Of a stretch of 64,000 nucleotides of DNA, positions 11,571-52,028 are shown in pieces (the stretch's first letter is position 1; every line of letters begins with the position of its first letter). Source of the DNA: Accumulibacter sp. (GTDB lineage: Bacteria; Pseudomonadota; Gammaproteobacteria; Burkholderiales; Rhodocyclaceae); NCBI RefSeq assembly GCF_031732815.1, contig NZ_JAVMKF010000268.1, positions 270 through 64,269 on the forward strand, given 5' to 3'. Position numbers and translations under genes: made by a program. The notes below the pieces were generated by a model that was not told where the DNA came from, did not search any database, and worked only from the letters and a program-made list of their open reading frames with translations.

Positions 11571-11588
11571 AGTTTTGTTCCTTTGGGG

Positions 11589-13637: not shown

Positions 13638-13640
13638 TCA

Positions 13641-18768: not shown

Positions 18769-18772
18769 GGTC

Positions 18773-21700: not shown

Positions 21701-22147
21701 AAACACCTGCGGCAGCATGCGGGCGGCCAGCTTGCCGGCCAGCTCCCAGCCGCTCTTGGCGCCTTCGTCGGGGGCCAGCTCATCGCACTCTTCGATGGTG
21801 ACGGCAACGCCGTCGTACATCAGCAGGTTGTTGTCGGCCAGGAAGCGGGCGAACAGCATGCGGTGCCAGTGCTGGTAGGCCACTTCTTGCACCAGGTGCT
21901 GCACATCTTGCTTGCCGTAAGTCGGGTTGGTGCTCTTCGAATCGCGGGTATCACCAAGCTGCTTGCCGTGGGTGCGCAGGCGGTTGCGCAACGCTTTCTC
22001 GTCATCGCTCAGAAAAGCTTCGGGCTTGTCGTGACCAACGCCCAGTTGCTCCACCGCCGCTTGCGCGGCAGTTTCAGCGACCGTGCGGGCCGCTTTGACG
22101 GTTTTTTCCAGCGCGCTGCGCAGGTCTTTGTCGAGTGCTTGCATCAT
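18773..22147 (-). CDS. pglX: BREX N6-adenine DNA methyltransferase PglX, 1124 aa
   Basis: TQLFTEPYMV, motif I LLDPCCGSGHF, motif IV variant ITNVPY; directly follows brxC. Confidence 0.92.
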   Translation of the reverse strand: MMQALDKDLRSALEKTVKAARTVAETAAQAAVEQLGVGHDKPEAFLSDDEKALRNRLRTHGKQLGDTRDSKSTNPTYGKQDVQHLVQEVAYQHWHRMLFARFLADNNLLMYDGVAVTIEECDELAPDEGAKSGWELAGKLAARMLPQVFKPGSPVFELTFAPEHQSELEQLLKDLPDTVFKASDSLGWVYQFWQADNKERINKSEVKIGADELPAVTQLFTEPYMVSFLLHNSLGAWWATRHPGKPCPVNLDYFRTLEDGTPAAGKFEGWPDSLADFKLLDPCCGSGHFLVAAFLMLVPMRMTAEGLSAKEAVNRVLAENIHGLEIDPRCVEIAVFAVALEAWRYPDASSKPLGVREIPAPNIACCGLKVAAKAQDWEALVPDEAPNADYVRQELRQLHASFSDAPLLGSLLDPARSLKNDLATSSFETLTALLRKALATERPPTLTNEVDDRWELALSAQGLLEAARLLDGRYELVITNVPYLSRGKQSEKLKDYCERHYDEGKNDLANVFLERCLELSQNGGSGVAQLVMPQNWLYQPRYTRQRKNLIQSFAWNLAAKLGPGAFDGITGEVVTVMLFTLSKKAPSKQAEFSGIDVTKVSNSEGKARALRSQELRQIAQQGLLENPDHVVRLDDVDAGHLLSDYATFSNGIQTGDYARFGRSFWEIAAFGSDWIRQQTTVEKTVLYGGCSQVLLWEQGSGALVDYVQEKLGGSTGAWLRGLDVWGKRGIQVSAMGSLPVSLYAGRAFDDNSVVILPKDESDLGAIWAYCSSAEYPIEVRKVSQSLKVRGPLIDVPFDKDRWQSEFESEYPNGLPNRSSDDPTQWLFHGDLKYSTAPLQVAVARLVGYAWPLEFDGENAQSNDERITVLASHADKDGIVCIPPVGREASAGDRLLNLMADAYGSDWSNDILAQLLTAADHAGKSLETWLRDKFFTQHCALFGNRPFVWHVWDGLRDGFAALVNCHKLDYKALEALIYTYLGDWIGRQKRDADSGVDGAQEKLAAAEALKKRLELILAGEAPYDIFVRWKPIEEQPIGWNPDLNDGVRLNIRPFLSVPDVGKKGAGVLRDKPKSLHWEKDRGSDVPSAPWYELGLHYGGKVGDRINDHHLTLNEKRAARAKLGKA

Positions 22148-22160
22148 GGGGAGTCAGGCC

Positions 22161-25100
22161 TCAGTGAAGGATGACCGGGCCGTTTTTCAGGGCCAGCGCG
22201 ATGGTTTGCTTGGCGTCCAGCAGCCAGGCGTCGATGTCTTCGTTGGTTTTGATGGTGCGGCTGGGCAGCTTGACGAACTGCGCCTTTGGCTCCATCAACT
22301 CGGCGGCGGCCACCAACACAGCGTCAAAGCGCGAGTCGATGGCAGCCACGCGGTCGGCGAACGATGAAAGCGACAGCCGATCAACCGTGGCCAGCACTTC
22401 GTCGGTGTTGGCCACTTGCACCTTGGGTGCATCGGTGAGGGTGAGCTTTTGGGCTGCGAGCAGGCTGTTGCGTTGTTCGGGCTCTAGCTGCTGCCAGTTG
22501 GTGTCGGCGTCCAGACGCGCCATGCCGTTCTTGTGGCGGGTCTGGTAATCGGTTTGCAGGCGGTTCAGTTCGTCGCGCAGCAACTGGGTGAGGCTGGCCA
22601 CCAGCGGCGTGACGGGATCAGGCTCCTCCAACAACTGGCGCTGCTGCTCCAGGTGCGTGACCTGTGCCACCAAAACCTCGGCCCCCGACATCCCACTGGC
22701 CTGGGCCAGCAGACGCTTGAGGGTGTTCCAGGCCGGCAGGCGCTTGTCGATGCGCTCGGCCAGATCCGTCCAGGTGTCGATGGCGGCGCTGAGTTCGTCG
22801 CGCTGGTTGTAGAGAGCCAATAGCTGCTCGTTGCCGGCTGTGAGGCGGATTTCTTCCAGTGCCTTCGTTTCAGGGCGCACCGGCCGTGGGGCCTCGCCAC
22901 CGGCGCGGTTGGCCAGCTCTTGCGCGCTGACCAGGAACTGCGGCACGTAGGCCAGCTCTTCGCCTTGCTTGGCGGTGAGGCCGACCTTCTGCAGCACCTT
23001 ACGAATCTGGATGCGCTGCGCCGCCGAGACAGTGGCCGACTCGACCTTGAACATGGTCTTGCCGATGACCTTGCGTTCCAGGTCTTTCGGGTCGATGGTC
23101 TGACCCTTCTCGTCCTGGGCGCGGATCAGCCCGGCCACCAGGAGTACCTGCAAGCCACCGTCCACCGCGTCACCCGGCCAGCCGTAGGTGGCGCCCTCGA
23201 AGTTCTTGCGGATGTCGATGCCCTTCTTGCCGCCAGCAATGAAGGCCAGGATGGCTTTGCACACCGAGTTCTTGGCGGGCTCGCCGTCGTCGCCCACGCT
23301 CTTGAGGGCATCTGGCGCGCCGTTTTGGGCCTTTTTCAGAACGTTTTCCCAACCAGCATGGTCGGCAATGTGGAACTGCGGGTAGAGCCGCTGCAAAGCG
23401 TTGGTGGCGGCCTCCAGCGTCATGGCCTGCAGGTCGGTACCCAGGATCTCGTTGCCACCGCCTTGGAAGACGCGAGCGCCCGAGAAAGCCTCTTGCAGCA
23501 GTTCCCGGATCTTGCCCTCAGCGGTTTGCTTGGTGGTCTCCATCGCCGAGCGGGCTTCGGTGCCCTCGGCGGTGTTGGGAACGCCCCGCTTGTCCAGTGT
23601 GGCACTGGCCGCCTTGAAGTCGATCAGATAGTGCCGCAGGTCATCGGCCGAGCGCTTGGGGATGAACACGAACACGGTGGGCGACTGGTTGCCCGCCTGG
23701 CGAGCGTCGGCACGCACCGAGTTTTCGTCGATGCTCCAGCCGTCACGCACCCAGACGCAGACCTTCTCGGCAGCGTCGCCGGGTAGTTGGGCGTCGAACA
23801 CAGGGAAGATGTCGCGTGTGACCTTGGAGGTGCCTTGGGTCAGCGACAGCTTGCGCACCATTTCGCCGAAGCGGCGGCGGATGCGATCGTCGCGCTCTGC
23901 GTCCACGCGGTGGGCCTCGTTGGCCAGGCTGTTACGTTGGCTAAGGAACTCGTCGTTCCAAGCGGCGCTTTCTTCGGTCTGGATGCGGTACTCGTCACCC
24001 ACCTTCATCAGCAGCTCGCACTTGTCGAGCACGCTCGGGAGCTTGCTGCGCAGCGCGCTGGAGCCTTGGGTGAGGTCTTCCACCAGCAAGTCAGCTAGGG
24101 TGTCGACAGTGGCGCGAATGCCGATTTCGTGATTGCTGCTGGCCAGCTTGTTGATGAGAAACACCAGGCCGCAGGACCGTGCCATCAGACGCTGGTCATC
24201 GGTGCCTTTGGCCCAGACCATGGTCTTCTCATGCACCTTGCGCGGCAGGATGCGCGACTGAAGCAGCTTGTCTGCTGCGTCGAAGTACAGGTAGTCCGCT
24301 GGCACCACGCTGCCGACCGGAGCGTCCACATTGGTCTGGATGACCTTGTGGATCATGGAGAGTTGGTTGCGCAGCTGGCTGTCGGTGCCGGTCTGGTCCA
24401 GCACGCGCAGTGTGTTCTCCCAAAAGCGACGGCGCACCGGCAGGATCGGGTAGTCCTGCGGGAAGAATTGAATGTCATCACCTCGGTGGCCGATGGTGGT
24501 GCCGGCCAAGTGGCGAGAGATTTCGCCAAGGTTGGTTTGCATCACCTTTTCGACCGGTGCCTTGGCCTCAGGCTTCTTGGCCAGGATGACCTGACGGATC
24601 ACTGCATCGACGTCGGCGTCGGAGAGCTCAACGCGGACGGTGAAGCGGCCTTCGAGCTTTTTGAGGTTGGAGGTGCCGGTGACAGCCGTCTGGCCGGTGC
24701 CGATGAACAGCATCTTGGCGCCGATGTTTTTGCAGCAGGCCTCGACCACTTCCTGCACGTCAATGGAGCGTTGGCTGTCTTCACCGATGTACTGTTGCAC
24801 CTCGTCGAGCACCACCAGGGTGAGGGGGAACTTGCCGTCGCGTGTTAGCGCCTGGCGAATGGCTTTGAGCATGTCGCCGCTGGAGACGTCCTGCACATAG
24901 GGGTACAGGTTGTTCAGTGTCTCGACGCAGGACGCTGGCGACGTGAACAGGTTGGGCTTAGCTTTGACCAGGGCCTCGTGCAACCCCTCGGCCACGTAGA
25001 AGTTGTCGAGCTCCTCATACCAGTCGAAGCCGCTCTTCTCAACATGACCCCGCACGGCCTCAAAAATGCCTTCATGCTGGAGCCACATGACGAAGCGTGC

Positions 25101-25601
25101 CACTGGGTACTGCTCGGGCAGGCCAACTGACTTGAACAAAATACCCAGCAGGGCCATGCGGACAGACTTGTCGCGCGAGCTGGAGCCCAACGTGCCAGAC
25201 GCGGCGTGCAAGCCGCCGTGGCGCTTCGCCTGAATACTGAGTTCCTTGAGCTGGTCGCTCACGCCTTGTGGCAGGTTCGCGATACCCCGCGCGGTAGCGC
25301 CGTCATCAAACGCGCTGTCGACCCAGAGCGCTCGCAGCATCTTGACCAAGTGCGATTTACCCGAGCCGTAGAAGCCGCTGACCCATACCGCTGGCTGCTC
25401 GGCCTGCTCGATATTCTTCAGGTAGACGTCGAGGATGTGTTCCAGGCCCTTTTCGTACTGGCCATCGCAGACAAATGTTTCAAGCTCGTACCGCAGGACG
25501 GACAGTGCCTGGTTGGTTTTTTCGTCATTGACGCTGGCCACGCCCTCGTTGACCAGCTTGCGGGTCGACGGGTCCTTTTGGTAGATGTCGCGATTGAGCA
25601 T
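22161..25601 (-). CDS. brxC: BREX P-loop ATPase BrxC, 1146 aa
   Basis: WVSGFYGSGKSHL Walker A, VLDEVQQY Walker B, YPILP; located between brxB and pglX. Confidence 0.92.
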   Translation of the reverse strand: MLNRDIYQKDPSTRKLVNEGVASVNDEKTNQALSVLRYELETFVCDGQYEKGLEHILDVYLKNIEQAEQPAVWVSGFYGSGKSHLVKMLRALWVDSAFDDGATARGIANLPQGVSDQLKELSIQAKRHGGLHAASGTLGSSSRDKSVRMALLGILFKSVGLPEQYPVARFVMWLQHEGIFEAVRGHVEKSGFDWYEELDNFYVAEGLHEALVKAKPNLFTSPASCVETLNNLYPYVQDVSSGDMLKAIRQALTRDGKFPLTLVVLDEVQQYIGEDSQRSIDVQEVVEACCKNIGAKMLFIGTGQTAVTGTSNLKKLEGRFTVRVELSDADVDAVIRQVILAKKPEAKAPVEKVMQTNLGEISRHLAGTTIGHRGDDIQFFPQDYPILPVRRRFWENTLRVLDQTGTDSQLRNQLSMIHKVIQTNVDAPVGSVVPADYLYFDAADKLLQSRILPRKVHEKTMVWAKGTDDQRLMARSCGLVFLINKLASSNHEIGIRATVDTLADLLVEDLTQGSSALRSKLPSVLDKCELLMKVGDEYRIQTEESAAWNDEFLSQRNSLANEAHRVDAERDDRIRRRFGEMVRKLSLTQGTSKVTRDIFPVFDAQLPGDAAEKVCVWVRDGWSIDENSVRADARQAGNQSPTVFVFIPKRSADDLRHYLIDFKAASATLDKRGVPNTAEGTEARSAMETTKQTAEGKIRELLQEAFSGARVFQGGGNEILGTDLQAMTLEAATNALQRLYPQFHIADHAGWENVLKKAQNGAPDALKSVGDDGEPAKNSVCKAILAFIAGGKKGIDIRKNFEGATYGWPGDAVDGGLQVLLVAGLIRAQDEKGQTIDPKDLERKVIGKTMFKVESATVSAAQRIQIRKVLQKVGLTAKQGEELAYVPQFLVSAQELANRAGGEAPRPVRPETKALEEIRLTAGNEQLLALYNQRDELSAAIDTWTDLAERIDKRLPAWNTLKRLLAQASGMSGAEVLVAQVTHLEQQRQLLEEPDPVTPLVASLTQLLRDELNRLQTDYQTRHKNGMARLDADTNWQQLEPEQRNSLLAAQKLTLTDAPKVQVANTDEVLATVDRLSLSSFADRVAAIDSRFDAVLVAAAELMEPKAQFVKLPSRTIKTNEDIDAWLLDAKQTIALALKNGPVILH

Positions 25602-25615
25602 GAGCTTCCCCTTGT

Positions 25616-26167
25616 TCAGAATTCTTTGTCTGCGGTGATCGGTACGGCGAGGTAATTCCAGCCGTCGTATCCATCCAGCAAGCGGTAGTTGTTGTCTTCA
25701 TAGCTGCCGGGGAAAAACACCAGCAGGCGTCCCTTCACCTTGGGCGCGAGCTTGTCCACGACTTCCTTGACCTTCAGGAAGCCGAACAGAGAGCCGACGC
25801 CCTGCAGCGCCACGACAAATTCCTCGCTGACGCATCTGTCTTGCAGGAACGTCTCGAACTCGGCTTCGATGTAGCTGAGGTACTTGGGCAGCAGCGTGGA
25901 CAGCAGGTTGGGTTTTTGGAAGTAGCTCTTGGCGTACCGTTGGGACGCCAGCCAATTCGGGAACGAATCGGTCAAGTCGAACAACGCCCAGTCATGGCCT
26001 GCCGCACGGGTGGCGATCTCAAACTCGTCGACTTTGGCCCGCAGGCGCAGCTCTTCTGTCTCGTGATAAACGCAGAAAATGACGCGCTGGGCGGCGGCGG
26101 CGTCATCGCGCCATGGCACAGCCACGTACTTGCTGTAAGACTGGGTCAATCGCTTAATTCTGCTCAC
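25616..26167 (-). CDS. brxB: BREX protein BrxB (DUF1788), 183 aa
   Basis: LLVFFPGSYEDNNYRLLDGYDGWNYLAVPI pattern, size and position. Confidence 0.85.
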   Translation of the reverse strand: MSRIKRLTQSYSKYVAVPWRDDAAAAQRVIFCVYHETEELRLRAKVDEFEIATRAAGHDWALFDLTDSFPNWLASQRYAKSYFQKPNLLSTLLPKYLSYIEAEFETFLQDRCVSEEFVVALQGVGSLFGFLKVKEVVDKLAPKVKGRLLVFFPGSYEDNNYRLLDGYDGWNYLAVPITADKEF

Positions 26168-26954
26168 GGAGCCACTCCATTTCCTGCGCAGTGATCAAGT
26201 TCGGGAAAAGCACTTCGACCACCTGGCCGACGCGCTTGAGTGAGATCCAGCCCCGGCGTGATGCGTCCTCGGCCAACTCGATCGTCTTTTCAAATGAACA
26301 GTCGAGCATTCGAGTGAAGTCACTCTTGAGCAGCGACTCGCCGCGCAGACCGCTGACGTAGCCTAGAAGCAGCGCCAACGAGACCGTGCCTGGCGTCGCC
26401 ACAGCACGGGCCCGCACTTTGCGAACGCGGCCAGCCAGGTGACCCGCCTGAGTCCAGGACGAATTGATGTTCTGTGCGGTGGACTTGAGCGTGGCCTTGC
26501 TGAAGCGCCCCGGCTCTTGCGCATCGATGAACTCTTCCATCGCCTCACGGGTGACGGTGGCTCCTTCCTGGAAGCCCAAGACAAAGGGAGCCGTGGCCCG
26601 AAGCAGGGGGTCACGCGAGTAGGCGCAAAGCGCTGCCAATAACGGCTGTCCATCCACATCGCGTTGCCAGAAGAAACGCAGGGCACGGAACACCAACAAG
26701 CTGGGATCGAGCGCGTAGAGGTCAGCCAGGTGCCGGAAGGTCAGCGTCCGCGTTTTGCCCGAGCGCTTGCCCAGGCAATTGGCAGTCTGGATGGCCTCCA
26801 GGTAGTCGGCCCTGGCCGCGTCGGCTACGTCCTCAAAGGACAGCAGGGCGCGCAGTTCGGCCAGCATCATTGTTCGGGCGGTATGGACGCCGCCGCGCTC
26901 ATAACTGAACCCGAGTCGCTCCAGCTTTTTGTTGTGTTTGTTCTCTACGTTCAC
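26154..26954 (-). CDS. brxA: BREX protein BrxA-like (DUF1819-related), 266 aa
   Basis: First gene after the WYL regulator and overlaps brxB; assigned mainly by position. Confidence 0.7.
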   Translation of the reverse strand: MNVENKHNKKLERLGFSYERGGVHTARTMMLAELRALLSFEDVADAARADYLEAIQTANCLGKRSGKTRTLTFRHLADLYALDPSLLVFRALRFFWQRDVDGQPLLAALCAYSRDPLLRATAPFVLGFQEGATVTREAMEEFIDAQEPGRFSKATLKSTAQNINSSWTQAGHLAGRVRKVRARAVATPGTVSLALLLGYVSGLRGESLLKSDFTRMLDCSFEKTIELAEDASRRGWISLKRVGQVVEVLFPNLITAQEMEWLREQN

Positions 26955-26973
26955 GTTGGGACAGTCCTGTTAT

Positions 26974-27903
26974 TCAGTCGGCATCGGCTTCGATCCGTTG
27001 TTGATCAGGGGAGCGATAGCCCGGGGCCAAGACGGCATTACGCACACCGTAAATGGCGAGGTGGTCTTTCAACCAAAGCCGGTACTCAGGTCCGCGCAAG
27101 CTGTGATCTGGGGAACAGTCCACACTCCATTTGCGCAGGATGTATCCGGCTGTAGCGGCCCGAAGCTTCATTCGAAGCACACCGCCCTGCATGCTGTAGT
27201 CCATCTCGGTGATCTCTGGTCGGGGCTGATCCGGGTGCGGCACCAGCTCCAGCTCGACGATCCGGGTCCACTGAATGTCTTGGTCGCTCATCTCGTGGGG
27301 CGCCACAGGCTGGCCCTTGAGCACCGCTGGACGATTGATCCGGGTGATGACGAAATCCCGGAATTCCTGCGACTTTCGGTCGAAGGCGCGGACGTGCCAG
27401 CGCAGACCGTTGTCGATCAGCGCGAAGGGGACGATCTCTCGCTCGGTGCGCCCACTGGAGATGGAGTGGTACTCGATGCCGAGCGGACACTCCTGGTGAA
27501 TCGCCCGAGTCACGCTAGCCAGCACATCCAGATCAGGATGCGTGAGCCGTGACGGGCTCTCGCTGATCACCCATGCCTTTAGCCGCATCGGCTCCCCGTC
27601 GCCGAAACCTTGGGTCAGCCAAGACAGGACGCGCTCAGGCGGGAAGTCAAAGACCGGACGGAAGTCCGGGCCCAGGACGTACGACTTGCCCTTGGAGTCG
27701 TAGTCAATGTTGCCGGGCGCCATATCTTTGTAGAGCGCCAGATCCCGACTGGCCGCCGCTGACTGGATTCCGAACCGCGAAACCAGGTCTTGGCGACGGA
27801 TCTCCCCGATAAAGCGCACGCGCAACTCCACGAATGCGAGGCGGTCGCGCTGTGGCTGGGTTAGATCTGCAAGCTGTTCGTTCGACATCCTGTGGGTGCT
27901 CAT
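26974..27903 (-). CDS. brxR: WYL-domain transcriptional regulator BrxR (wHTH-WYL-WCX), 309 aa
   Basis: N-terminal HTH (RRQDLVSRFGIQSAAASRDL) and WYL motif REIVPFAL...RWHVRAFD...FRDFVITRI. Alternative ATG at 27888. Confidence 0.88.
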   Translation of the reverse strand: MSTHRMSNEQLADLTQPQRDRLAFVELRVRFIGEIRRQDLVSRFGIQSAAASRDLALYKDMAPGNIDYDSKGKSYVLGPDFRPVFDFPPERVLSWLTQGFGDGEPMRLKAWVISESPSRLTHPDLDVLASVTRAIHQECPLGIEYHSISSGRTEREIVPFALIDNGLRWHVRAFDRKSQEFRDFVITRINRPAVLKGQPVAPHEMSDQDIQWTRIVELELVPHPDQPRPEITEMDYSMQGGVLRMKLRAATAGYILRKWSVDCSPDHSLRGPEYRLWLKDHLAIYGVRNAVLAPGYRSPDQQRIEADAD

Positions 27904-28056: not shown

Positions 28057-28605
28057 ATGAACCAGCACTCAGACCCACTAGGCTTGTTTGTGAAGGCTGT
28101 GACCTTCGCTGCAGACAAGCACCGGAATCAGCGCCGCAAGGATGCCGATGCGTCGCCCTACATCAACCATCCAATTGCCTTGGCCAACGTGCTGGCGAAC
28201 GAAGGGGGCGTCAACGATGTGGTGGTTTTGTGCGCAGCGGTCCTGCACGACACGATCGAGGACACCGAGACCACACCCGAAGAGCTCATAGCGGTTTTCG
28301 GGCCGCAGGTCACCGCAACAGTGCTGGACGTGACCGACGACAAGTCTTTGGACAAGCATGTCCGCAAGCAGCGTCAGATTGAGCACGCACCGCACATCTC
28401 AAAAGAAGCCAAGCTCGTGAAGCTGGCCGACAAGATTTGCAACCTGCGGGACATCTTGGCGTCACCGCCGGCAGACTGGTCGCCCGAGCGCAAGCAAGGC
28501 TATTTCGACTGGGCAGCCAAAGTCGTGGCGGGTGTTCGCGGCGTCCATCCTGAACTCGAAGCCGTGTTTGACGGACTCTTGGCCCGCCATGCCGAACTCC
28601 GCTGA
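28057..28605 (+). CDS. Stand-alone HD-domain (p)ppGpp hydrolase-like protein (MESH1/small alarmone hydrolase), 182 aa
   Basis: HRNQRRK...PYINHP, VLHDTIED, VTDDKSL and VKLADKICNLRD SpoT/MESH1 motifs. Confidence 0.88.
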   Translation: MNQHSDPLGLFVKAVTFAADKHRNQRRKDADASPYINHPIALANVLANEGGVNDVVVLCAAVLHDTIEDTETTPEELIAVFGPQVTATVLDVTDDKSLDKHVRKQRQIEHAPHISKEAKLVKLADKICNLRDILASPPADWSPERKQGYFDWAAKVVAGVRGVHPELEAVFDGLLARHAELR

Positions 28606-28606
28606 A

Positions 28607-30463
28607 ATGCATCTCAAGCCGGAGGCGCTGGCGCGCTACGGCCTGCCGGACATCGCCTATCCGATCGAAAGCGCTGATCTGCAGGCCGCACTGACAGGGG
28701 GCGGGGAACTGCCGCTGGCCATGATGCTGCATGGCCTTCAGGAGGTTGCGCGCGACGGGGAAACTGACTGGAAGCACCTCGAGCCAGCAATGAGTCGCTT
28801 GTCCGAGTTGCTGGCGCCGGAAGACGAACGCGATGTGATCTCGGCCGCCGGCGACACCTGGTGGATCGAGATCGGGCCAGTCGACCTCAGCGGCAAGCTG
28901 GTTACCGTGCAGCGTGGTAACGACTTGATTGCCGCGATCACACCACGGGACGACGGCCGGCTAAGGGTCGCGGTATTCCGCCCGCTGGATGCCAAAAGTG
29001 CGGAGTACCTGACTGGTCTGGGCCAGGTGCCGCACCCGGAGCACGGGGTTTGCATGCGCGAGAACAACTGGGAGTACGCGCTCGACTGCTCTGCGGGAAA
29101 TGGCAACTACTATGCAGCCGACCGGGGCGAGGCCTACCTGTCCTACTGGGAGAAAGGCCTGGGCATCAGTTGGGACGGTACTGAAGTTCCCGAGTGGCGC
29201 ACGCAGTTGAGCCTCGTTGCCCGTCCGGCTGCGCAAGCGGTTGTCGATCTTGGCGTCCACCACTCCTTGTCCGGGGATGGCGATCTGGAGCCCGATGATG
29301 ATGCGAGCGATGAGGCCGATGACGACTCCACGCCACTGGGCTGGCGCAGCAAGCGTCAGCAGCGCCGAACAGTTCAGGGCCGATTTGCTGGCTGTCTCTT
29401 GGGTGGCGCCGTCGGAGACGCGCTTGGGGCACCAGTTGAGTTCATGAAGCGGACCGAGATCCTTCGCAAATTCGGTCCCAAGGGAATCACCCAGTACGCG
29501 CCAGCCTACGGCGGCCTCGGCATGATTACCGACGACACTCAAATGACCCTGTTTACAGCCGAGGGGCTGATACGGGCGTGGGTGCGCGGCTGCATGAAGG
29601 GCATCACCACCTATTCCGGAGTGACGGCTCATGCTTACCTGCGCTGGCTTCAGACCCAAGGCGAACGTCCGACGTGCGACATTGACTTCGGCACCGACGA
29701 AACTGGCTGGCTCTTTCAGCAACGGGAACTCCACAGCCGACGTGCCCCTGGCAACACCTGCCTCGCGGCGCTGCGGGCGATGAAGTCGCTCGGGGAACCC
29801 GCCCGAAACGACAGCAAAGGGTGCGGGGGCGTCATGCGGGTCGCACCCGTAGGGTTATTCGCTTGGCGCCTGCGCCAGCAGGACTCACCGCACGACGCTT
29901 TCCGCTTGGGCGCCGAGTTGGCAGCCCTGACGCACGGACATCCGACCGGTGCGCTGACAGGCGGTGTGCTGGCAGTTCTGATCCTTGCGCTAACCGACGG
30001 CGCCTCATTGCCCGAAGCGCTGGTCGTATCGAAAGCCATCCTCCGATCCGAGCCTGGACATGAGGAAACGCTGCGTGCGATCGAGTTGGCCGAGACGCTG
30101 GCTGCGAGTGGTCAACCTCATGAAGCGGCGATCTCACAGCTTGGTCAGGGGTGGATCGCCGAAGAGGCGCTGGCCATCTCAATCTACTGTGCGCTCGTGG
30201 CACGAAATTTCAAACACGGCGTCATCCTCGCCGTGAACCACGACGGTGACTCTGACTCGACAGGCTCAATCACCGGCAACTTGCTGGGCGCCATGCACGG
30301 CGTCCGAGCGATACCAGCCGAATGGCTGGAGCCTCTGGAGTTGCACGAAGTCATCACGTCCCTTGCGGAAGACCTGTACGCCTTCAAAGATTGGGACATA
30401 GGCGAATACAGCGAGAACGTAGAGATGAACCAGCGCATTTGGCAGAAATACCCCGGGTTCTAA
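28607..30463 (+). CDS. ADP-ribosylglycohydrolase (DraG/ARH fold) with about 250-aa N-terminal unknown domain, 618 aa
   Basis: GAVGDALG, TDDTQMT, NDSKGCGGVMR and GDSDSTGSITG. ATG 28607 lies 1 bp after the HD stop. Confidence 0.88.
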   Translation: MHLKPEALARYGLPDIAYPIESADLQAALTGGGELPLAMMLHGLQEVARDGETDWKHLEPAMSRLSELLAPEDERDVISAAGDTWWIEIGPVDLSGKLVTVQRGNDLIAAITPRDDGRLRVAVFRPLDAKSAEYLTGLGQVPHPEHGVCMRENNWEYALDCSAGNGNYYAADRGEAYLSYWEKGLGISWDGTEVPEWRTQLSLVARPAAQAVVDLGVHHSLSGDGDLEPDDDASDEADDDSTPLGWRSKRQQRRTVQGRFAGCLLGGAVGDALGAPVEFMKRTEILRKFGPKGITQYAPAYGGLGMITDDTQMTLFTAEGLIRAWVRGCMKGITTYSGVTAHAYLRWLQTQGERPTCDIDFGTDETGWLFQQRELHSRRAPGNTCLAALRAMKSLGEPARNDSKGCGGVMRVAPVGLFAWRLRQQDSPHDAFRLGAELAALTHGHPTGALTGGVLAVLILALTDGASLPEALVVSKAILRSEPGHEETLRAIELAETLAASGQPHEAAISQLGQGWIAEEALAISIYCALVARNFKHGVILAVNHDGDSDSTGSITGNLLGAMHGVRAIPAEWLEPLELHEVITSLAEDLYAFKDWDIGEYSENVEMNQRIWQKYPGF

Positions 30464-30512
30464 ATGAAAACGGTGGCCACTGGAAACAAACACCTCGCAT
30501 GGGAGTAATGAC

Positions 30513-31013
30513 ATGACCGCTCAGATTGCAGAACGACTGCACTACCAGGGAGAGGACGTTGCCATGTGCACGAACCCCCTCAGCGACTATTTCGCCATGG
30601 GGGGCACGAACCCGCGCTTCGAGTCCAACTGCACGGCCTTGTGGCGTGGCTACGTTGGTAGCTGGGAAATCGTGGATGACCGCCTGTACCTGGTGGGGCT
30701 GAGCGGAACGCTAGAGGGCGGAGCGGATGCAACTTTGGCAACCATCTTCCCGGACTTTCCCGATCGCGTGTTTGCCCACTGGTACTCCGGCACGATCCGC
30801 ATCCCCCAGGGCAAACAGCTCGAGTATGTCCACATGGGCTACGGCAGCACCTTCGAGCGGGACTTGTTCTTGGATATCGAGCGAGGTGTGATTGTGGCCA
30901 CCCGGGTTCGTCATAACGGTACCGCCGAGTCTGATAACGCTCCCGAAAGCTACGAGGTCGGCGCCATGACGGTGTTCCCTCGAAGTGGTAAGGGTGAGGG
31001 GGAGTCGGCGTGA
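30513..31013 (+). CDS. Hypothetical protein, 166 aa
   Basis: Natural amino-acid composition (CTALWRGYVGSWEI); coupled to the next gene by GTGA overlap. Confidence 0.65.
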   Translation: MTAQIAERLHYQGEDVAMCTNPLSDYFAMGGTNPRFESNCTALWRGYVGSWEIVDDRLYLVGLSGTLEGGADATLATIFPDFPDRVFAHWYSGTIRIPQGKQLEYVHMGYGSTFERDLFLDIERGVIVATRVRHNGTAESDNAPESYEVGAMTVFPRSGKGEGESA

Positions 31014-31657
31014 TCTATCTCTACTGGTACCTCGGCATCGGCGCGGTTGTCCTTGCCATCGTCTACGGCGCACATCACCTGACAAAGGAGAAAGAGTCTG
31101 ACTCCCTTCGTGAGCTGCTCGAAGCCGTCAACCCGGATCGCAAGAAGCTTTCCTACCGCATCCTCAACAACATCGTCGCCCCCGTCCTTGCGGCCATCCT
31201 CGTGGTCGCCGTCTGGCCAGTGGCGATCTACATGAAGGTCAAGGAGATGCTCCAGAAGAAGGAAAGCTACGTGTCCCCGGAGGAACGCGAATTTGCAGTC
31301 GAGCGCGAACACCTGCTGGAGCGACTGACGGCGCAGGAAATCGAGAGGCGTGAGGTTGTCACAGATCCGCTCAAGGCTGCACCTGATTTGCCCTTTGGCC
31401 ACCTTAATGCTGCGTGGCAGGAATTCCTCCAAGGCAAAGCCGATGGTGCCGAGCTGTGGTCGTTCTCGGCACAGTGGCAGACGACATGGGGACGCAAGGA
31501 ACTGCGGTGTGGATACGCGGTGGTCCAGGACGGAGCGCCGGGCGCCCACTTTCTGACGGTGTGGAAAGACATCCCGGAAGAGGCGGAAGGCGGTGGCAGT
31601 GCCAAAAAGGCGAGCGCTGGCGACATCCCAGGCTGGCTCAGGAAGCAGGCTGACTGA
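31010..31657 (+). CDS. Hypothetical membrane protein (two N-terminal TM helices), 215 aa
   Basis: Hydrophobic segments YWYLGIGAVVLAIVYG and IVAPVLAAILVVAVWPVAIY. Confidence 0.65.
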   Translation: MIYLYWYLGIGAVVLAIVYGAHHLTKEKESDSLRELLEAVNPDRKKLSYRILNNIVAPVLAAILVVAVWPVAIYMKVKEMLQKKESYVSPEEREFAVEREHLLERLTAQEIERREVVTDPLKAAPDLPFGHLNAAWQEFLQGKADGAELWSFSAQWQTTWGRKELRCGYAVVQDGAPGAHFLTVWKDIPEEAEGGGSAKKASAGDIPGWLRKQAD

Positions 31658-31690
31658 GAGTCAGGCGCGACGACTCATCAAGGAGATCCC

Positions 31691-32122
31691 ATGCAATACA
31701 AGAAAGGCGATCGCGTAAAGCATCCGAAGAAGCCGGATTGGGGCATTGGCCAGGTGCTTGCCGACAGTACCGGCGGAACGGTACGAATCTTCTTCACCCA
31801 TGCCGGCGAGAAAACGATGTCACTGGATTTCGTGCAGCCCGAGAAGCTGTCGGGCGATGTGGCGTCGAGTCCGATCCTGGACCAGTTGAATCTGACCGCG
31901 CAGCCCACCAAGGATGCGAAAGGGAAAGTTCTCTGCACGAATTGCGGCGCGCCGACGCAGTTTGGCGAAACAGCAAATCCAAAGCGGTATCAATTGGGTT
32001 GGTGCGAGCCCTGTTTTAAGCACAGTCAGCGAACGTTCAAAGACGAAACCACTGGGGAAACGCGCTACATAGACGAATTTCGAACGATCGACGGTATCAA
32101 GAGCCGCTATGGCCCGCACTGA
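31691..32122 (+). CDS. DUF3553-like SH3-barrel protein with Zn-ribbon, 143 aa
   Basis: GDRVKHPKKPDWGIGQV N-terminus; CTNC...CEPC; SD AAGGAG. Confidence 0.65.
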   Translation: MQYKKGDRVKHPKKPDWGIGQVLADSTGGTVRIFFTHAGEKTMSLDFVQPEKLSGDVASSPILDQLNLTAQPTKDAKGKVLCTNCGAPTQFGETANPKRYQLGWCEPCFKHSQRTFKDETTGETRYIDEFRTIDGIKSRYGPH

Positions 32123-32130
32123 GGAACAGC

Positions 32131-32889
32131 ATGTACGAAATTGAAATGCATGAGATGTCGGAAGCATTCTTCCCCTGCTGGAAGGCAGCCGGCATCCACT
32201 TGAGCAAACAGGCCGATGGCGGGATCCAGTCATGGCTCCGCGCACACCCCTATCCGCCGTTCCTGGAGCATCTGTCGTTCCGTCTGGGCAATCAGCTGTT
32301 CTTCGTGCGCGTCGAGGACGTCGATGGGAAAGTGCGGGGCCCCGGAAACCCGCAGGGGTTCATCACGGCTGCCAGGATGGCTAACGGTCGAGCCTGCATC
32401 CTGCCGATGAAGAAGAAGCTTTTCGGTGGCGCCTGGGTGGCAGACATGCCGGGATGGGGCTTGCTGGACCCGGATACCAGAAAGCCGATCGATCCCGTCG
32501 CTTTGGTCACGGACCAGAAGATCGAGATGACGCCATGGGAGGTTCACGACATGGCCGTGCAAGTGGTCCGCGACCATCTGGACAAGCAAGGCTTCGAGTT
32601 GATGTCCTGGCAGGGCAATCCGGAGGTGGATCCCTCAATCTGGTTCATCGGTCAGTCCAAACGGCCGGAGTGGGTGGTAGTGCGTTCCGCAATATTTCCG
32701 GCCAATAGCGCCGAGCGCCCGAGCAACTGGCAGGCGATTGCAGCCAGCTGCGCCAAGATGAGCGCGATTGGTCACTTTGCCTGTGTCGCATTAGCGAGCG
32801 TAGACGAGATCTTCGACCCCGGCGCGGAGAAACCTATGCCGTTGTGGCGTGGGCATGGAATGCATGTGCGTTTCACCGGGCTGGAGTAA
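32131..32889 (+). CDS. Hypothetical protein, 252 aa
   Basis: SD GAGG; 8 bp after the previous stop. Confidence 0.65.
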   Translation: MYEIEMHEMSEAFFPCWKAAGIHLSKQADGGIQSWLRAHPYPPFLEHLSFRLGNQLFFVRVEDVDGKVRGPGNPQGFITAARMANGRACILPMKKKLFGGAWVADMPGWGLLDPDTRKPIDPVALVTDQKIEMTPWEVHDMAVQVVRDHLDKQGFELMSWQGNPEVDPSIWFIGQSKRPEWVVVRSAIFPANSAERPSNWQAIAASCAKMSAIGHFACVALASVDEIFDPGAEKPMPLWRGHGMHVRFTGLE

Positions 32890-32892
32890 GGC

Positions 32893-33681
32893 ATGGGCCT
32901 CCGGATCGCGCTCGCTGTGCTGATAACTCTGTTCAGTGTGTATGCCGTCTGGATCGAGCCGAACTGGTTAGACGTCAGTACTCACGACATGCGATCGGAC
33001 CTCGCAGGGAAAGGCATCCGAGTCGTTCAACTCTCTGATTTGCACATTCAAGACTTCAGTCACCGTGAGGTGGAAGTTGCCAACCGAGTCAAATCCCTTA
33101 AGCCCGATTTGGTAATCCTTTCTGGCGATGTAATTGATAGGCTGGATCGGCTTCCGACTCTTCATTCCTTTCTTGCGGCTCTGGGCGATACGCCCACCGT
33201 TGCTGTTTTGGGTAATTGGGAATACTGGGCTGACGTTGATCTTCATGCGTTACGCGACGAGTACCGACACCACGGGATACGGCTTCTGGTGAATGAGGTG
33301 GCTTCTTATCGGGTTCGGCTGCGTACTCTTCACATCGTGGGCATGGATGATTTCACTGCTGGCCAACCAGACGGTGGACTCTTGAACGCACCCCTTAAGG
33401 GCGGCACAGCGGTGTTAGTGCAGCACTCGCCAGGCTATTTTGAAAAATTGCCGACCAATCTCCGTTCAGGAATATTCAACCTGTGCCTTTCCGGGCACAC
33501 CCATGGTGGTCAGATCACTCTTTTTGGGTTGCCCATATGGAGGCCCCCGGGCAGCGGTCCTTTTGCTTCGGGGTGGTATGAGACGACGGCCTGCAAACTC
33601 TACGTCTCGAAGGGACTCGGGACGTCACTTCTACCAGTCAGATTTGGGGCGCGTCCAGAGATCGCTGTGTTTGATCTTTGA
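32893..33681 (+). CDS. Calcineurin-like metallophosphoesterase (YkuE-like) with N-terminal TM/signal, 262 aa
   Basis: SDLH, GDVID, GNWE, HSP and GHTHGGQ motifs. Confidence 0.88.
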   Translation: MGLRIALAVLITLFSVYAVWIEPNWLDVSTHDMRSDLAGKGIRVVQLSDLHIQDFSHREVEVANRVKSLKPDLVILSGDVIDRLDRLPTLHSFLAALGDTPTVAVLGNWEYWADVDLHALRDEYRHHGIRLLVNEVASYRVRLRTLHIVGMDDFTAGQPDGGLLNAPLKGGTAVLVQHSPGYFEKLPTNLRSGIFNLCLSGHTHGGQITLFGLPIWRPPGSGPFASGWYETTACKLYVSKGLGTSLLPVRFGARPEIAVFDL

Positions 33682-33705
33682 TCTGCGATTAAGAAGGGAT
33701 TAAAT

Positions 33706-34683
33706 ATGACCATGGCCAATATCACCGTCGTCAAGGGCAACATCGTCAGGAAGACCGACTGCGACGGCGTCGTCAATTCGGCAAATCCGAACCTGCGAGC
33801 AGGTAGTGGAGTCTGTGGCGCAATTTACGCAGCAGCAGGGCCCCGTCTCGAACCCTACAGCTCGCAGTTCGCGCCTCTTCAAATAGGCGAAGCGTTGGCA
33901 ACACCTGCTTTTGATATGGATTGTCGCTACATCATCCACACCCGAGGCCCCAAGTATTACGAGGATGCCGACCCTCCCGGTAGCCTCGAGAAAGCCATGC
34001 GCAACACCATCGCTTTGGCTGATGAAAATGGCTTAACCCGATTAGCTGTTCCTGCGATTTCGATGGGTGTGTACGGCTACCCAGCGGAGGAGGCCATTCC
34101 AATCCTGGTGCGTGTTGCATCCCAAATGGCAGGGGTGCTTCAGAACCTACTGGAAATTCGTTTCGTGGTGGTGAGCGATGAACTCTTGCACCTGTTCCGT
34201 CGGTCGATTGAACAGCATGTCACATCCGCCGATGAATGCACCCCGCAGGCGCTCGTACCCCTGAGAGTTTCAAGAGTTAAGGAGTCAGAGGTTCGCGACA
34301 AGCTGGAGCAGTTTCATATTTTGACTTATGCCGAGGACGGATTCTCACCACTGGATATTCACGCACGACGACTCGGTATCGATCGCGAGCTTGTGAAGGC
34401 ATTTGTGAGTGAAGTCAACGATCGATCCGCAGTTGGCTCGCTTCATCCGAAGGCGCCCGTCAGTGCTGTGCCGCGTGAACTGGTCCGCGACCGGCAGGAC
34501 GTAGATGCGCTGGCTGCAAGCATTGGGGAGCTCCTGCGTGTCAATCGTGAAACGATCAAAGCCAGACGTTTGGCCTTCGATTTTCGTACGCCGTCGGTAC
34601 CTGAGTTCACAGTTGCTGCGTTGAATTCTGCGATGCGTGCGCAGGAGTCTGGCTTGGAAGAAATTCTGATATTGGAAATGTGA
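33706..34683 (+). CDS. Macrodomain protein (ADP-ribose binding/hydrolase) with unknown C-terminal domain, 325 aa
   Basis: VVNSANPNLRAGSGVCGAIYAAAG, IIHTRGP and PAISMGVYGYP. Confidence 0.88.
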   Translation: MTMANITVVKGNIVRKTDCDGVVNSANPNLRAGSGVCGAIYAAAGPRLEPYSSQFAPLQIGEALATPAFDMDCRYIIHTRGPKYYEDADPPGSLEKAMRNTIALADENGLTRLAVPAISMGVYGYPAEEAIPILVRVASQMAGVLQNLLEIRFVVVSDELLHLFRRSIEQHVTSADECTPQALVPLRVSRVKESEVRDKLEQFHILTYAEDGFSPLDIHARRLGIDRELVKAFVSEVNDRSAVGSLHPKAPVSAVPRELVRDRQDVDALAASIGELLRVNRETIKARRLAFDFRTPSVPEFTVAALNSAMRAQESGLEEILILEM

Positions 34684-34713: not shown

Positions 34714-35496
34714 ATGGCAAAGCCTGTTGAAATCGGTTCCCGGAGCTTCCGGACCCAGAAAAGCGCTCTTGATCACTACAAGGAAATCCTGCATCGGTAT
34801 CGGGACGGGGAGCGTGTCGCCGACCCGAGCGATCACGCCGACCTCGTGTCGCTCATCGAGCGGTATGACCCGATTCTTGAAGATGTCGGTGAGCCGGCGA
34901 AGGGGTGCGGGCAGATCGGCCACTTCGAGCGGCGCTTGAATACCGGGACGGGCTGGAGCAACTCAGGCTTCTGGGTGGTGCGCCAAGATGGGACTGCCAC
35001 GGACTTTTCGTACATTTGGGCCGTCAAAGGCCTTGCGGGGGACCGGTCGAAGGACTTCTATGGTGCGTGCCGTGAGGCAGTCGCACTCGACCTGGTCCTA
35101 GCTAAGAAGGGTGCCTTTGCAGAGTATGGGGATGACCAAGGGCGGGTTGAGTGTGAACTGACCGGCGTGCTGGTCACCATCGATGACGCACACCTGGACC
35201 ACGCTTGGCCGTACTTTTCACACTTGGTGAGTGGCTTTCGGGCTGCCAGGGGCTGGTCCAGAGACATCCCGGATGGTGTCGTGTCGGCTCCGGCGGATGG
35301 CCAGACGACGGCCACGTTCATCGATACCTCGGTGGCCGATGCCTTCCGGGCGTACCACCACGACCAGGCAATCCTCCGGATACTTTCTCGGACAGCGAAC
35401 CTGCAGACCGCCAGCCAGGCTCGACGGCCACGAGTCGCGCGTCCCGTCCGTGTTCCGGATCGATACAACGTACCATTAGATCTCGGACGCAGATGA
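34714..35496 (+). CDS. DCL/DUF3223-like protein with possible HNH-like C-terminus, 260 aa
   Basis: IGSRSFRTQKSALDHYKEIL...FWVVRQDGTATDFSY; C-terminal CELTG...HLDH...RTANL. Confidence 0.6.
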   Translation: MAKPVEIGSRSFRTQKSALDHYKEILHRYRDGERVADPSDHADLVSLIERYDPILEDVGEPAKGCGQIGHFERRLNTGTGWSNSGFWVVRQDGTATDFSYIWAVKGLAGDRSKDFYGACREAVALDLVLAKKGAFAEYGDDQGRVECELTGVLVTIDDAHLDHAWPYFSHLVSGFRAARGWSRDIPDGVVSAPADGQTTATFIDTSVADAFRAYHHDQAILRILSRTANLQTASQARRPRVARPVRVPDRYNVPLDLGRR

Positions 35497-35541
35497 AGGG
35501 TCGGAGTTCTATCGCCCAAGAGGCTGAAATCGAGGTCGCAC

Positions 35542-36768
35542 ATGCATAAACCGTTTGGACAAATCCCCTGGCCCAACCCCGTTGCTGCATCCAACGTTGC
35601 TGACGCGGCGCGCCATGTTGAAAGCTCGCTGGATGACGACCCCGATCCCGATGTCCACCCTGGCTCCGATCGGTTCCCCCGGCCGGGATTAGATATCCCG
35701 AGCGCCGATGACTCTCAAGAGGTGGTTGATGAAGTCGACCCCGCGTCTCTACCGGTTAGTCAGGGACAAGACGAGGAAAGTCATGAAGGCGCTGCCGGCG
35801 GAGTCGTCGAGGGGGGCGTCGAGTACTTGGCCTTTTACAAGTCTTTCCGGGATGTCATGAGGGCTCCGGCGCGCAAACGGTGGGGCATTTTCTTCATCAA
35901 GAAGCGCTGTTTTGCTTTGGCCACCGACATGAGCTTCAGCACCGGGGAGTCATTCGCCGATTGCCTAGACGCCCTGGCGGCATTTCTGTACACGCACGAG
36001 CTGTATCACTACCGGTTCGATGCCCACTGCCTTCAGATGGAAGCAACCGGCGGGTTACCGGTGTACAGGCCATACCGTAGGCTGGTCGCGAAACGGCCGA
36101 TCAACGAATGGCATGAGGAGTCGATCGCCAATTTCTACGGCCTGAAAGCGGTTCAGCCGAGCCCCAGATTTCCCTACCCTCAGCCCGTATACGACTACTT
36201 GTGGGACCTGGTGGCTAACAGCCCGGGCGCATACGCCGGAGGCATAGACAAGCAGCAGAGGTCCCGAAAGGAACACATGGTTCAGCAGGCCAGCGCAGCG
36301 TTTGGGAACGCTGGTCCGACCGTTTGGCAGGATCTGGTCAAGTCGACCATTCGCACCGGAATGGGCCTCTCAAAGCCACGCGAATCCACACTGAGCTCCT
36401 ACTTGCACCTGGACAATTGCCCGGTTTACTGGATCGACTGGGTCAAAGGTGGAAAGAGTGTTTTGGTGCCATACGCGGCGTCCGTTGCTGAGATCAACAA
36501 CGATTTCATCAGGCGGTATCTAGCAGGGGTTCAGGACCACCACAGCGATCACAGCTACTACCGGATCGACAACGGGGAGAAGGTTAAGCTGCCAAATCCG
36601 CACCGCGCTGATCTGACCAATCGCGAGTTCCACAACATCATCGGCAAGGCCGGGATGACCAGCCCTCAGTTCTACAAAGAGAGGGATCGAACGTCTGTTT
36701 GGCGAAAAGGTGTCCCTCGCAGCCCGGTGCTGCCGCCGCGTTTTCCATCGAAGGGTGGAGCGAGTTAG
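35542..36768 (+). CDS. HExxH metallopeptidase-like domain fused to C-terminal HicA-like domain, 408 aa
   Basis: THELYH...EESIANFYG; C-terminal DHSYYR...VKLPNPHRADL...IIGKAGMT. Confidence 0.6.
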   Translation: MHKPFGQIPWPNPVAASNVADAARHVESSLDDDPDPDVHPGSDRFPRPGLDIPSADDSQEVVDEVDPASLPVSQGQDEESHEGAAGGVVEGGVEYLAFYKSFRDVMRAPARKRWGIFFIKKRCFALATDMSFSTGESFADCLDALAAFLYTHELYHYRFDAHCLQMEATGGLPVYRPYRRLVAKRPINEWHEESIANFYGLKAVQPSPRFPYPQPVYDYLWDLVANSPGAYAGGIDKQQRSRKEHMVQQASAAFGNAGPTVWQDLVKSTIRTGMGLSKPRESTLSSYLHLDNCPVYWIDWVKGGKSVLVPYAASVAEINNDFIRRYLAGVQDHHSDHSYYRIDNGEKVKLPNPHRADLTNREFHNIIGKAGMTSPQFYKERDRTSVWRKGVPRSPVLPPRFPSKGGAS

Positions 36769-36940
36769 AGGCGTTTGGGTCTAGATGAATGCATGTCGGG
36801 GCATGGTGGGAACAGCGCGGGGAACGGAATCCTTACTCCATGTCGCGCGGAATCCCTCCCGCCTTCGCCCTGTGGTGCAGGCCTGCGGGAGGACCGTCCG
36901 CTCCAGTGCTATACTCCACCACCACCATCAATTGGATCGA

Positions 36941-36968
36941 CGCCCAACCCTTCCCGGTTGGGCGTTTT
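36941..36968 (+). terminator. Hairpin with T-tract after the accessory cluster
   Basis: Perfect 9-bp stem CGCCCAACC/GGTTGGGCG, 6-nt loop, then TTTT. Confidence 0.55.
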
Positions 36969-37000
36969 CACGTTCGTTGTTTTCACGTCCAATTTCACGT
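36966..37000 (+). repeat. Three direct copies of TTTCACGT
   Basis: Copies start at 36966, 36981 and 36993. Confidence 0.7.

Positions 37001-41881: not shown

Positions 41882-52028
<10,147 letters not shown>

Follow-up and report, generated by a model that had tools for sequence, protein, structure and literature searches.

A single gene joining a zincin-like HExxH module to a HicA-like domain in a BREX-containing defence island of Accumulibacter sp.

The fusion gene and its HicA-like C terminus

We analysed a 64,000-nucleotide stretch of an Accumulibacter sp. genome (NCBI RefSeq assembly GCF_031732815.1, contig NZ_JAVMKF010000268.1, positions 270 to 64,269 of the forward strand), hereafter called the window, which carries a gene at 35542-36768 on the plus strand encoding a 408-residue protein, P0001. 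This protein joins an N-terminal module bearing the HExxH motif to a C-terminal domain resembling HicA toxins, and scans of the whole protein against Pfam, NCBIfam, PADLOC and PHROG assigned it to no family; likewise, phmmer found no match to it among PDB sequences. A GAGG ribosome-binding site stands 6 nt upstream of the ATG, and a sigma-70 consensus promoter was searched for in the leader and not found. The gene and its parts are as follows (confidence of the AlphaFold models is given as the predicted local distance difference test, pLDDT).

35471-35541, plus strand: conserved cassette leader with the GAGG ribosome-binding site at 35532-35535, delimited by blastn homology to other loci
35542-36768, plus strand: whole open reading frame (ORF) of the HExxH-module/HicA-like fusion protein P0001, ATG start, 408 aa
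35578-35628, plus strand: N-terminal helix, aa 13-29, tethered by the acidic linker, pLDDT >90 and moderately conserved; possibly an intramolecular ligand or pro-segment
35629-35796, plus strand: acidic, largely disordered, D/E-rich linker, aa 30-85, pLDDT 44-64 for aa 31-60 and <50 for aa 33-46
35797-36456, plus strand: zincin-like HExxH module, aa 86-305, with the motifs LAFYKS, WGIFF, HELYH, EESIAN, SPGAYA and CPVYW in invariant columns
35995-36009, plus strand: HELYH, aa 152-156, putative zinc ligands H152 and H156 and putative catalytic E153, conserved in 241/241 (H152), 241/241 (E153) and 240/240 (H156) relatives
36115-36132, plus strand: EESIAN, aa 192-197, start of helix 191-204, with E192 or E193 as putative third zinc ligand, from conservation and alignment to the E..AN of M78 peptidases
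36469-36690, plus strand: HicA-like domain, aa 310-383, alpha-beta-beta-beta-alpha plus an extra helix, with H337 at 36550-36552, from models, hhalign, PDB and Foldseek searches and Pfam
36691-36765, plus strand: conserved tail, aa 384-408 (T384, W387, P392, R393), which canonical HicA lacks; kept in 173-177 of 174-178 relatives
36769-36970, plus strand: 3′ untranslated region (UTR), 36769-36935, common to the closest relatives, then a terminator hairpin and T-run at ~36938-36970, from alignments

The original prediction, in which this gene was read as an HExxH metallopeptidase fused to a HicA-like RNase domain, was confirmed in what it had observed. The reading frame and its ATG were as described, HELYH and EESIANFY occupy residues 152-156 and 192-199, respectively, and the stretch likened to HicA, DHSYYRIDNGEKVKLPNPHRADLTNREFHNIIGKAGMTSPQF, corresponds to residues 336-377. 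The acidic and disordered N terminus was also recovered, both by counting on the protein sequence (19 D/E against 2 K/R in residues 28-95) and by AlphaFold pLDDT values below 50 at residues 33-46. The AlphaFold2 model of the full-length protein reached a pLDDT of 85.6 and a predicted template modelling (TM) score, pTM, of 0.90, the latter suggesting that the modelled chain may pack into a single body instead of forming beads on a string.

The C-terminal domain was compared with HicA by hhalign: 41 diverse C-terminal domains of the family (alignment A3) were set against 21 genuine PF07927 proteins, taken from genomes within the same class. The two profiles matched with 90% probability over 47 columns (E 1.7e-6, score 35.6), against a maximum of 15.7 among 150 column shuffles (mean 8.6, sd 1.7) and 12.3 for the reversed profile, and D336-H337 was paired with the S-H of HicA, whose His is the sole invariant column of the HicA alignment. 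In Pfam, HicA_toxin (PF07927) was matched below threshold by 10 of the 41 domains (best E 0.0011), and each other family by at most one of them. Furthermore, a search of the C-terminal profile against 177,635 distinct PDB sequences put 1WHZ first and in register, but at E 0.2. Although recorded as a hypothetical protein of Thermus thermophilus, 1WHZ is what we take to be the HicA-family reference structure.

Because Foldseek returned no significant match for the whole model, residues 311-408 were modelled alone. This AlphaFold2 model (pLDDT 92.5) showed the order alpha-beta-beta-beta-alpha, with helices at 315-326 and 360-369 and strands at 330-332, 339-341 and 347-349 in the AlphaFold models, followed by a tail that lacked regular secondary structure even though its pLDDT stayed at ~97 up to residue 400. 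Foldseek against 350,542 PDB chains then ranked 1WHZ at the top (prob 0.97, target-normalised TM 0.71, root-mean-square deviation [rmsd] 2.2 A, 73 columns), followed by chains C and A of Escherichia coli HicA 6HPB (TM 0.61 and 0.54) and the Streptococcus pneumoniae toxin 5YRZ_B. 6HPB and 5YRZ_B were the only other low-rmsd matches with more than 30 aligned columns, and none of the domain matches was formally significant (best E 0.14). The predicted HicA-like fold with its retained His is thus well supported by hhalign, the PDB sequence search, Foldseek and the sub-threshold Pfam matches; the AlphaFold models and the Foldseek ranking place the fold of HicA, akin to the double-stranded-RNA-binding domain (dsRBD), at the C terminus.

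Besides the alpha-beta-beta-beta-alpha fold, the domain shares with HicA toxins (PF07927; 1WHZ, 6HPB, 5YRZ) the P-x-H and AG(M/L)t..ef motifs and a His that follows a small residue where strand 1 begins (DH in P0001, SH in HicA). It differs from them in being fused, in having no HicB partner and in scoring below the Pfam gathering score, and it carries the extra helix, the ~25-aa tail (T..W....PR) and the IDNG and PNPH motifs in addition.

The HExxH module and its interchangeable C termini

The N-terminal module is laid out as two short strands (LAFYKS and WGIFF), a long helix containing HELYH and a helix opening with EESIAN, after which SPGAYA and CPVYW follow; helices predominate over residues 120-272 of the AlphaFold model. 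An HExxH motif with a Glu about 35 residues further on, at the start of a helix, is the gluzincin pattern. When the module was aligned by hhalign with 12 genome-derived PF06114 (ImmA/IrrE, M78) proteins, HExxH and E..AN both fell in register. A search of 29 diverse N-terminal modules against Pfam at E <= 10 found no peptidase family, PF06114 included, and an hmmsearch of the module profile against PDB sequences gave no match.

Relatives were plentiful. A word-indexed search retrieved 115 clusters of full-length proteins of ~400 aa, each labelled 'hypothetical', and the named isolates among the relatives belong to Hydrogenophaga and Ectothiorhodospira. When 1.84 billion representatives were searched with a profile, 1,624 proteins matched at E <= 1e-3 and 103 of them at E <= 1e-30, many of the 1,624 sharing the N-terminal module alone. 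Judged by sequence, the module is a distinct, very widespread and unannotated family.

Residue conservation was counted on 257 retrieved relatives aligned to the profile, the denominators varying by column. Besides H152, E153 and H156, which never varied, D160 (238/240), E192 (242/242), E193 (241/242), A196 (243/243), N197 (239/243) and Y231 (238/239) were conserved in the N-terminal module, as were H337 and H354 (each 180/181) in the HicA-like domain. Because these catalytic-type residues are near-invariant across relatives, the motifs are not due to chance, and the catalytic-type residues of both halves of the protein are under strong selection. The IDNG, PNPH and T..W....PR motifs were as highly conserved as the catalytic-type residues.

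Many representatives of ~370 aa carried the same N-terminal module with another C terminus, GL.FKpW....WSVRv....RAHL......G.W....iG.H..mGHG, which hhalign matched to HigB-like toxins (PF05015) with 74% probability (E 2.7e-5). Cross-controls by hhalign were negative, both for the HicA-like domain against HigB or ParE and for the HigB-like domain against HicA or ParE. The HigB-like sister clade comprises P0184, P0195, P0199 and about 30 others; its HigB-like domain, of the RelE superfamily, has an invariant RAHL and a C-terminal GHG. A search of the HigB-like C-terminal profile against PDB sequences found no match. Kinship of this C terminus with ParE/RelE (PF05016) was also considered and dropped, there being no signal to that family; PF05015 alone was matched. 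In a maximum-likelihood tree of the N-terminal module, the HigB-type proteins formed one well-supported clade (99/87) nested among HicA-type lineages, indicating a single replacement of the effector. One module borne by alternative mRNA-interferase folds is the pattern expected if the C terminus is a toxin and the N-terminal module its control.

Two further variants were seen. P0244 and P0254 have a third type of C terminus, W.VH..DPD.WPS.PH.HD...KL...DG, to which no family was assigned. In a 664-aa relative, from a different genus of the same family, the HExxH module and a more canonical HicA are accompanied by a long N-terminal extension, the HicA matching PF07927 across the whole profile at E 0.0015. 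The gene for this 664-aa variant belongs to a long operon on the minus strand (G116:C1:1513700-1540500; L115, L122, L123), which is made up of large genes and begins with that of a WYL protein; this protein and the WYL regulator of the window are 92.7% identical. By tblastn, the other genes of that operon showed no similarity to the BREX-1 proteins of the window.

Cassette boundaries and genomic setting

Nucleotide homology to seven other loci (L001-L006 and L008) was confined by blastn to 35471-36970, that is, to a unit of ~1.5 kb reaching from ~70 nt before the ATG to the terminator. It began at 35515 (L004) or at 35471 (L001), within the 3′ end of the upstream gene, which is unrelated, and with L002, L003, L005 and L006 it stopped at 36924-36970. 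This limited homology indicates that the gene moves alone, as an autonomous cassette of ~1.5 kb, and no conserved adjacent gene was found across 16 loci. That the gene forms an operon with its DUF3223/HamC2-like upstream neighbour, or with the ADP-ribose 'eraser' genes described below, was rejected, since these neighbours are not kept beside homologues and the homology starts 70 nt before the ATG.

A split version, with separate genes for the N-terminal module and the HicA-like domain, was sought and not found. Of the two candidates, P0193 lies on an uninformative contig of 1.2 kb, and P0211 is a 5′-truncated remnant. The latter (L117 3671-4270, on a JGI metagenome contig) retains the CP.Y motif and the HicA-like domain, its frame running upstream through CP.Y, and is flanked by a GMC oxidoreductase gene and by VapBC and HipA modules.

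The 3′ UTR, of ~165 nt, is conserved with L002, L003, L005 and L006 and not with L001 or L004, and the terminator hairpin after it differs at each locus. A possible long-range pairing, GGTGGTGGGA/ACTCCACCACC, was noticed in this region. This element is single-copy and not a repeat. A structured RNA or RNA antitoxin at this place was considered and is not supported: the fold z was -1.6, only 2 pairs had compensatory changes, and the match in Rfam, to RF02278 'Betaproteobacteria toxic small RNA', was far below threshold (23.6 bits vs a gathering score of 50, E 0.073).

The gene resides in a defence island, and its relatives usually stand beside restriction or BREX (bacteriophage exclusion) genes. 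In the window, a BREX type 1 operon runs on the minus strand from ~11.6 to 27.9 kb, ~7.6 kb away from the gene, within a complete BREX type 1 region at 10632-27903 (minus strand). Its genes, and the immediate upstream neighbour of the fusion gene, are listed here.

11589-13637, minus strand: BrxL
13641-15983, minus strand: PglZ
15974-17806, minus strand: GmrSD type IV restriction gene, inserted between PglZ and PglX
17803-18768, minus strand: DUF932 gene, inserted between PglZ and PglX
18773-22147, minus strand: PglX
22161-25601, minus strand: BrxC
25616-26167, minus strand: BrxB
26154-26954, minus strand: BrxA (likely)
26974-27903, minus strand: WYL/BrxR-type regulator
34714-35496, plus strand: upstream neighbour, a 260-aa DUF3223 protein, PADLOC HamC2/HamC at E 1.8e-82

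Since no HamA- or HamB-like gene adjoins it, the DUF3223 protein is an orphan Hachiman-type accessory component, and in other genomes the DUF3223/HamC2-like gene is not linked to the fusion gene. Further upstream, a co-directional run at 28532-34683 (plus strand) encodes a 643-aa ADP-ribosylglycohydrolase fusion, a DUF3553 protein, a YaeI-like metallophosphoesterase and a 325-aa macro-domain protein, together with three ORFs without a family. An ADP-ribosylglycohydrolase is also found upstream of the Hydrogenophaga defluvii homologue (L004 5399-6253; 32% identity, tblastn). Pfam detected no HicB family in the flanking genes and small ORFs, which agrees with the original prediction that no hicB lies nearby: the small ORFs up to the porin gene belong to no Pfam family, and the upstream neighbour is the DUF3223/HamC2-like gene. 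About 5 kb downstream of the island, past the porin and trpC/D/G-like genes, a 2,531-aa polyketide-synthase-like ORF occupies 41882-49477 (plus strand); the polyketide-synthase-like, porin and trpC/D/G-like calls come from the translated sequences rather than from the family scan.

Elsewhere, homologues were found next to type I restriction genes and RadC, to an SNF2/NOV_C helicase with WYL and DUF3987, to an integrase, to type III restriction with Phd/PIN genes, and in a methylase/HNH element. Among 120 neighbour ORFs taken from 15 loci, PADLOC detected type I methyltransferases in up to 4 loci, as well as DrmD/BrxH-like helicases and restriction and specificity subunits of type I. The gene was horizontally acquired; it is single-copy in its source genome, and its presence is rare and patchy, in 2/151 genomes of the family and 1/401 of the phylum.

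Interpretation, alternatives and relation to known systems

Our leading interpretation, to which we give about an even chance, is that P0001 is a self-contained, single-chain RNase toxin with its own regulator acting in cis, most likely serving phage defence or abortive infection. The effector would be the C-terminal HicA-type domain, an RNA-cleaving inhibitor of translation that uses His337. The N-terminal part, made up of helix 13-29, the acidic tether and the ~220-aa HExxH/EE/Y module, would keep this effector inactive in cis, thus doubling as built-in antitoxin and sensor. The RNase would be freed when a trigger acts on the HExxH module, presumably a product of the phage or a signal linked to infection; the release could come about through a change of conformation or through zinc-dependent cutting of a tether within the protein. 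In the model, helix 13-29 and strand 59-64 might act as an intramolecular plug or as a cleavable pro-segment. A stronger form of this mechanism, which we regard as unlikely, holds that the ~220-aa HExxH/EE/Y module is an unrecognised zinc-protease family that cuts its own acidic or pre-toxin linker on infection and so irreversibly releases interchangeable toxins (HicA-like, HigB-like and at least one other). The sensor-effector idea of the original prediction fits the autonomous single-gene cassette, the defence islands and the replacement of HicA by a HigB-like domain in one sister clade, and that interpretation as a whole is partly supported.

Several results weigh against a toxin held in check by a metallopeptidase. 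The peptidase is inferred mainly from motifs, albeit of extreme conservation: against the M78 profile, the N-terminal module scored 28.7 (shuffle maximum 19.1), a weak match of 28% probability (E 6e-4), and Foldseek with the full model found no significant neighbour either in the PDB (no match at E <0.7) or among the viral models of BFVD. Of the predicted ImmA/IrrE-type peptidase, then, the invariant HExxH and E..AN motifs and the weak hhalign match stand, whereas a Pfam match and a PDB fold match were not obtained. On the toxin side, P0001 itself had no match to PF07927 at E <= 1 (gathering score 27 bits), which places the domain in a divergent subfamily of the HicA fold and not among the members that Pfam recognises; given the extra conserved tail, the activity of the domain may differ from that of canonical HicA. 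Furthermore, an 89-aa HicA-only remnant product was present on 9 metagenome contigs; if the free HicA-like domain of the remnant is expressed, it would not be lethal, which is awkward for a strongly toxic domain. As for a role in defence, tblastn found no homologue in plasmid and phage collections, and PADLOC has no model for the family.

Unlikely, in our estimation, is an arrangement in which the metallopeptidase is the effector and the HicA- or HigB-like domain targets or senses, bringing a zinc protease to mRNA or to the translating ribosome, where it would cleave a translation component, much as the Lit protease cleaves EF-Tu during phage exclusion. Over ~240 relatives of all C-terminal types, the catalytic Glu, the two His, E192/E193 and Y231 are 99-100% conserved, which argues for real catalysis; both alternative C-terminal folds bind RNA or ribosomes, and a separate antitoxin would be unnecessary. 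However, His337 is kept in 180/181 relatives and the HigB-like clade keeps an invariant Arg/His and GHG, suggesting that the RNase sites are also used, and no similarity to Lit or to any characterised effector protease was detectable. Alternatively, the HicA resemblance might reflect a shared dsRBD-like RNA-binding fold without nuclease activity, in an RNA-guided or RNA-regulated peptidase or a regulator that is no toxin. The family-specific tail and the IDNG and PNPH motifs, untypical of HicA, would suit this, as would the position of P0001 below every PF07927 threshold; yet its near-invariant His pairs with the invariant His of genuine HicA, its nearest structures are HicA toxins and not other dsRBD proteins, and its replacement by a HigB-like toxin in the sister clade points to a toxin role. 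We consider this very unlikely.

An ordinary fused toxin-antitoxin addiction module, which would stabilise the island without defending against phage and in which HExxH would be structural, its metal serving folding, seems to us distinctly unlikely. It is consistent with the monocistronic gene, with the toxin genes and integrases nearby and with the treatment of the N-terminal part as a long HicB in Class 13 of Gerdes (see below), but a single stable polypeptide that is not processed cannot give post-segregational killing by differential decay. A fully conserved catalytic Glu would also be unusual for a purely structural site, and the settings are defence-rich.

Returning to the cis-regulated RNase toxin, part of its architecture has a precedent. 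A survey of HicA (Gerdes 2024, PMC10865869) distinguished 14 genetic contexts, among them Class 13, fused HicBA (e.g. WP_067334119.1), whose members are monocistronic, 340-440 aa long, and have an N-terminal part that is alpha-helical, with a HicA domain at the C terminus; they are proposed there to act like the fused defence toxin CapRel-SJ46. With 408 aa, a helical N-terminal part, a C-terminal HicA fold and a single gene, P0001 fits the description of this class. The original prediction that the architecture was undescribed is therefore probably too strong: it is probably already catalogued as a fused HicA class, and so the gene is not categorically new. Class 13 differs, however, in that its N-terminal part is called a large HicB, the terms peptidase, protease, HExxH and zinc being absent from the paper, and in that the HigB-like sister architecture is not reported there. 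A survey of multidomain RelE/ParE toxins does not mention a peptidase (Gerdes 2025, PMC11980606), and a full-text literature search for HicA with a zincin found no description of such a fusion. Three features go beyond the descriptions found: the 'long HicB' is a module of its own, very widespread and unannotated, whose protease-type site is fully conserved; it would also govern a HigB-like effector; and in defence islands it travels as a single-gene cassette.

The second precedent concerns the module. For COG2856 zinc proteases, which are usually Xre fusions, a link with RelE and PIN toxins has been documented and a three-component system proposed (Makarova 2009, PMC2701414). Like ImmA/IrrE (COG2856, Peptidase_M78, PF06114), P0001 has HExxH followed 25-40 residues on by E..AN, and the two share the genomic association of a zinc protease with an mRNA interferase and, as a working model, a signal-activated regulatory protease. 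In contrast, P0001 has its protease-type module fused directly to the toxin, with no Xre or helix-turn-helix partner (no Xre-type helix-turn-helix domain was found in the protein or its neighbours), and the module is ~220 aa long vs ~120-160. With CapRel-SJ46 and similar proteins the likeness would be one of mode of action only, in that one domain of a single chain autoinhibits a toxin aimed at translation and senses infection; the folds and chemistry are unrelated, and the regulator in P0001 is distinguished by its protease-type metal site, through which cleavage would make activation irreversible.

Among phage sensors, toxins and antitoxins fused in one protein form an emerging class, of which CapRel is, to our knowledge, the one well-studied member. 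The present family would follow another logic, in which swappable RNase toxins are attached to a regulator whose protease-type metal site is fully conserved; as a compact one-gene system, it would suit studies of how a toxin is restrained and released in cis. The module forms ~1,600 clusters at 50% identity and has no Pfam, NCBIfam or PADLOC model, so that defining it would improve the annotation of defence islands. Furthermore, the family connects two observations that lack a mechanistic explanation, namely the association of COG2856 proteases with RelE and PIN toxins (Makarova 2009) and the fusion of HicA to a long 'HicB' (Gerdes 2024).

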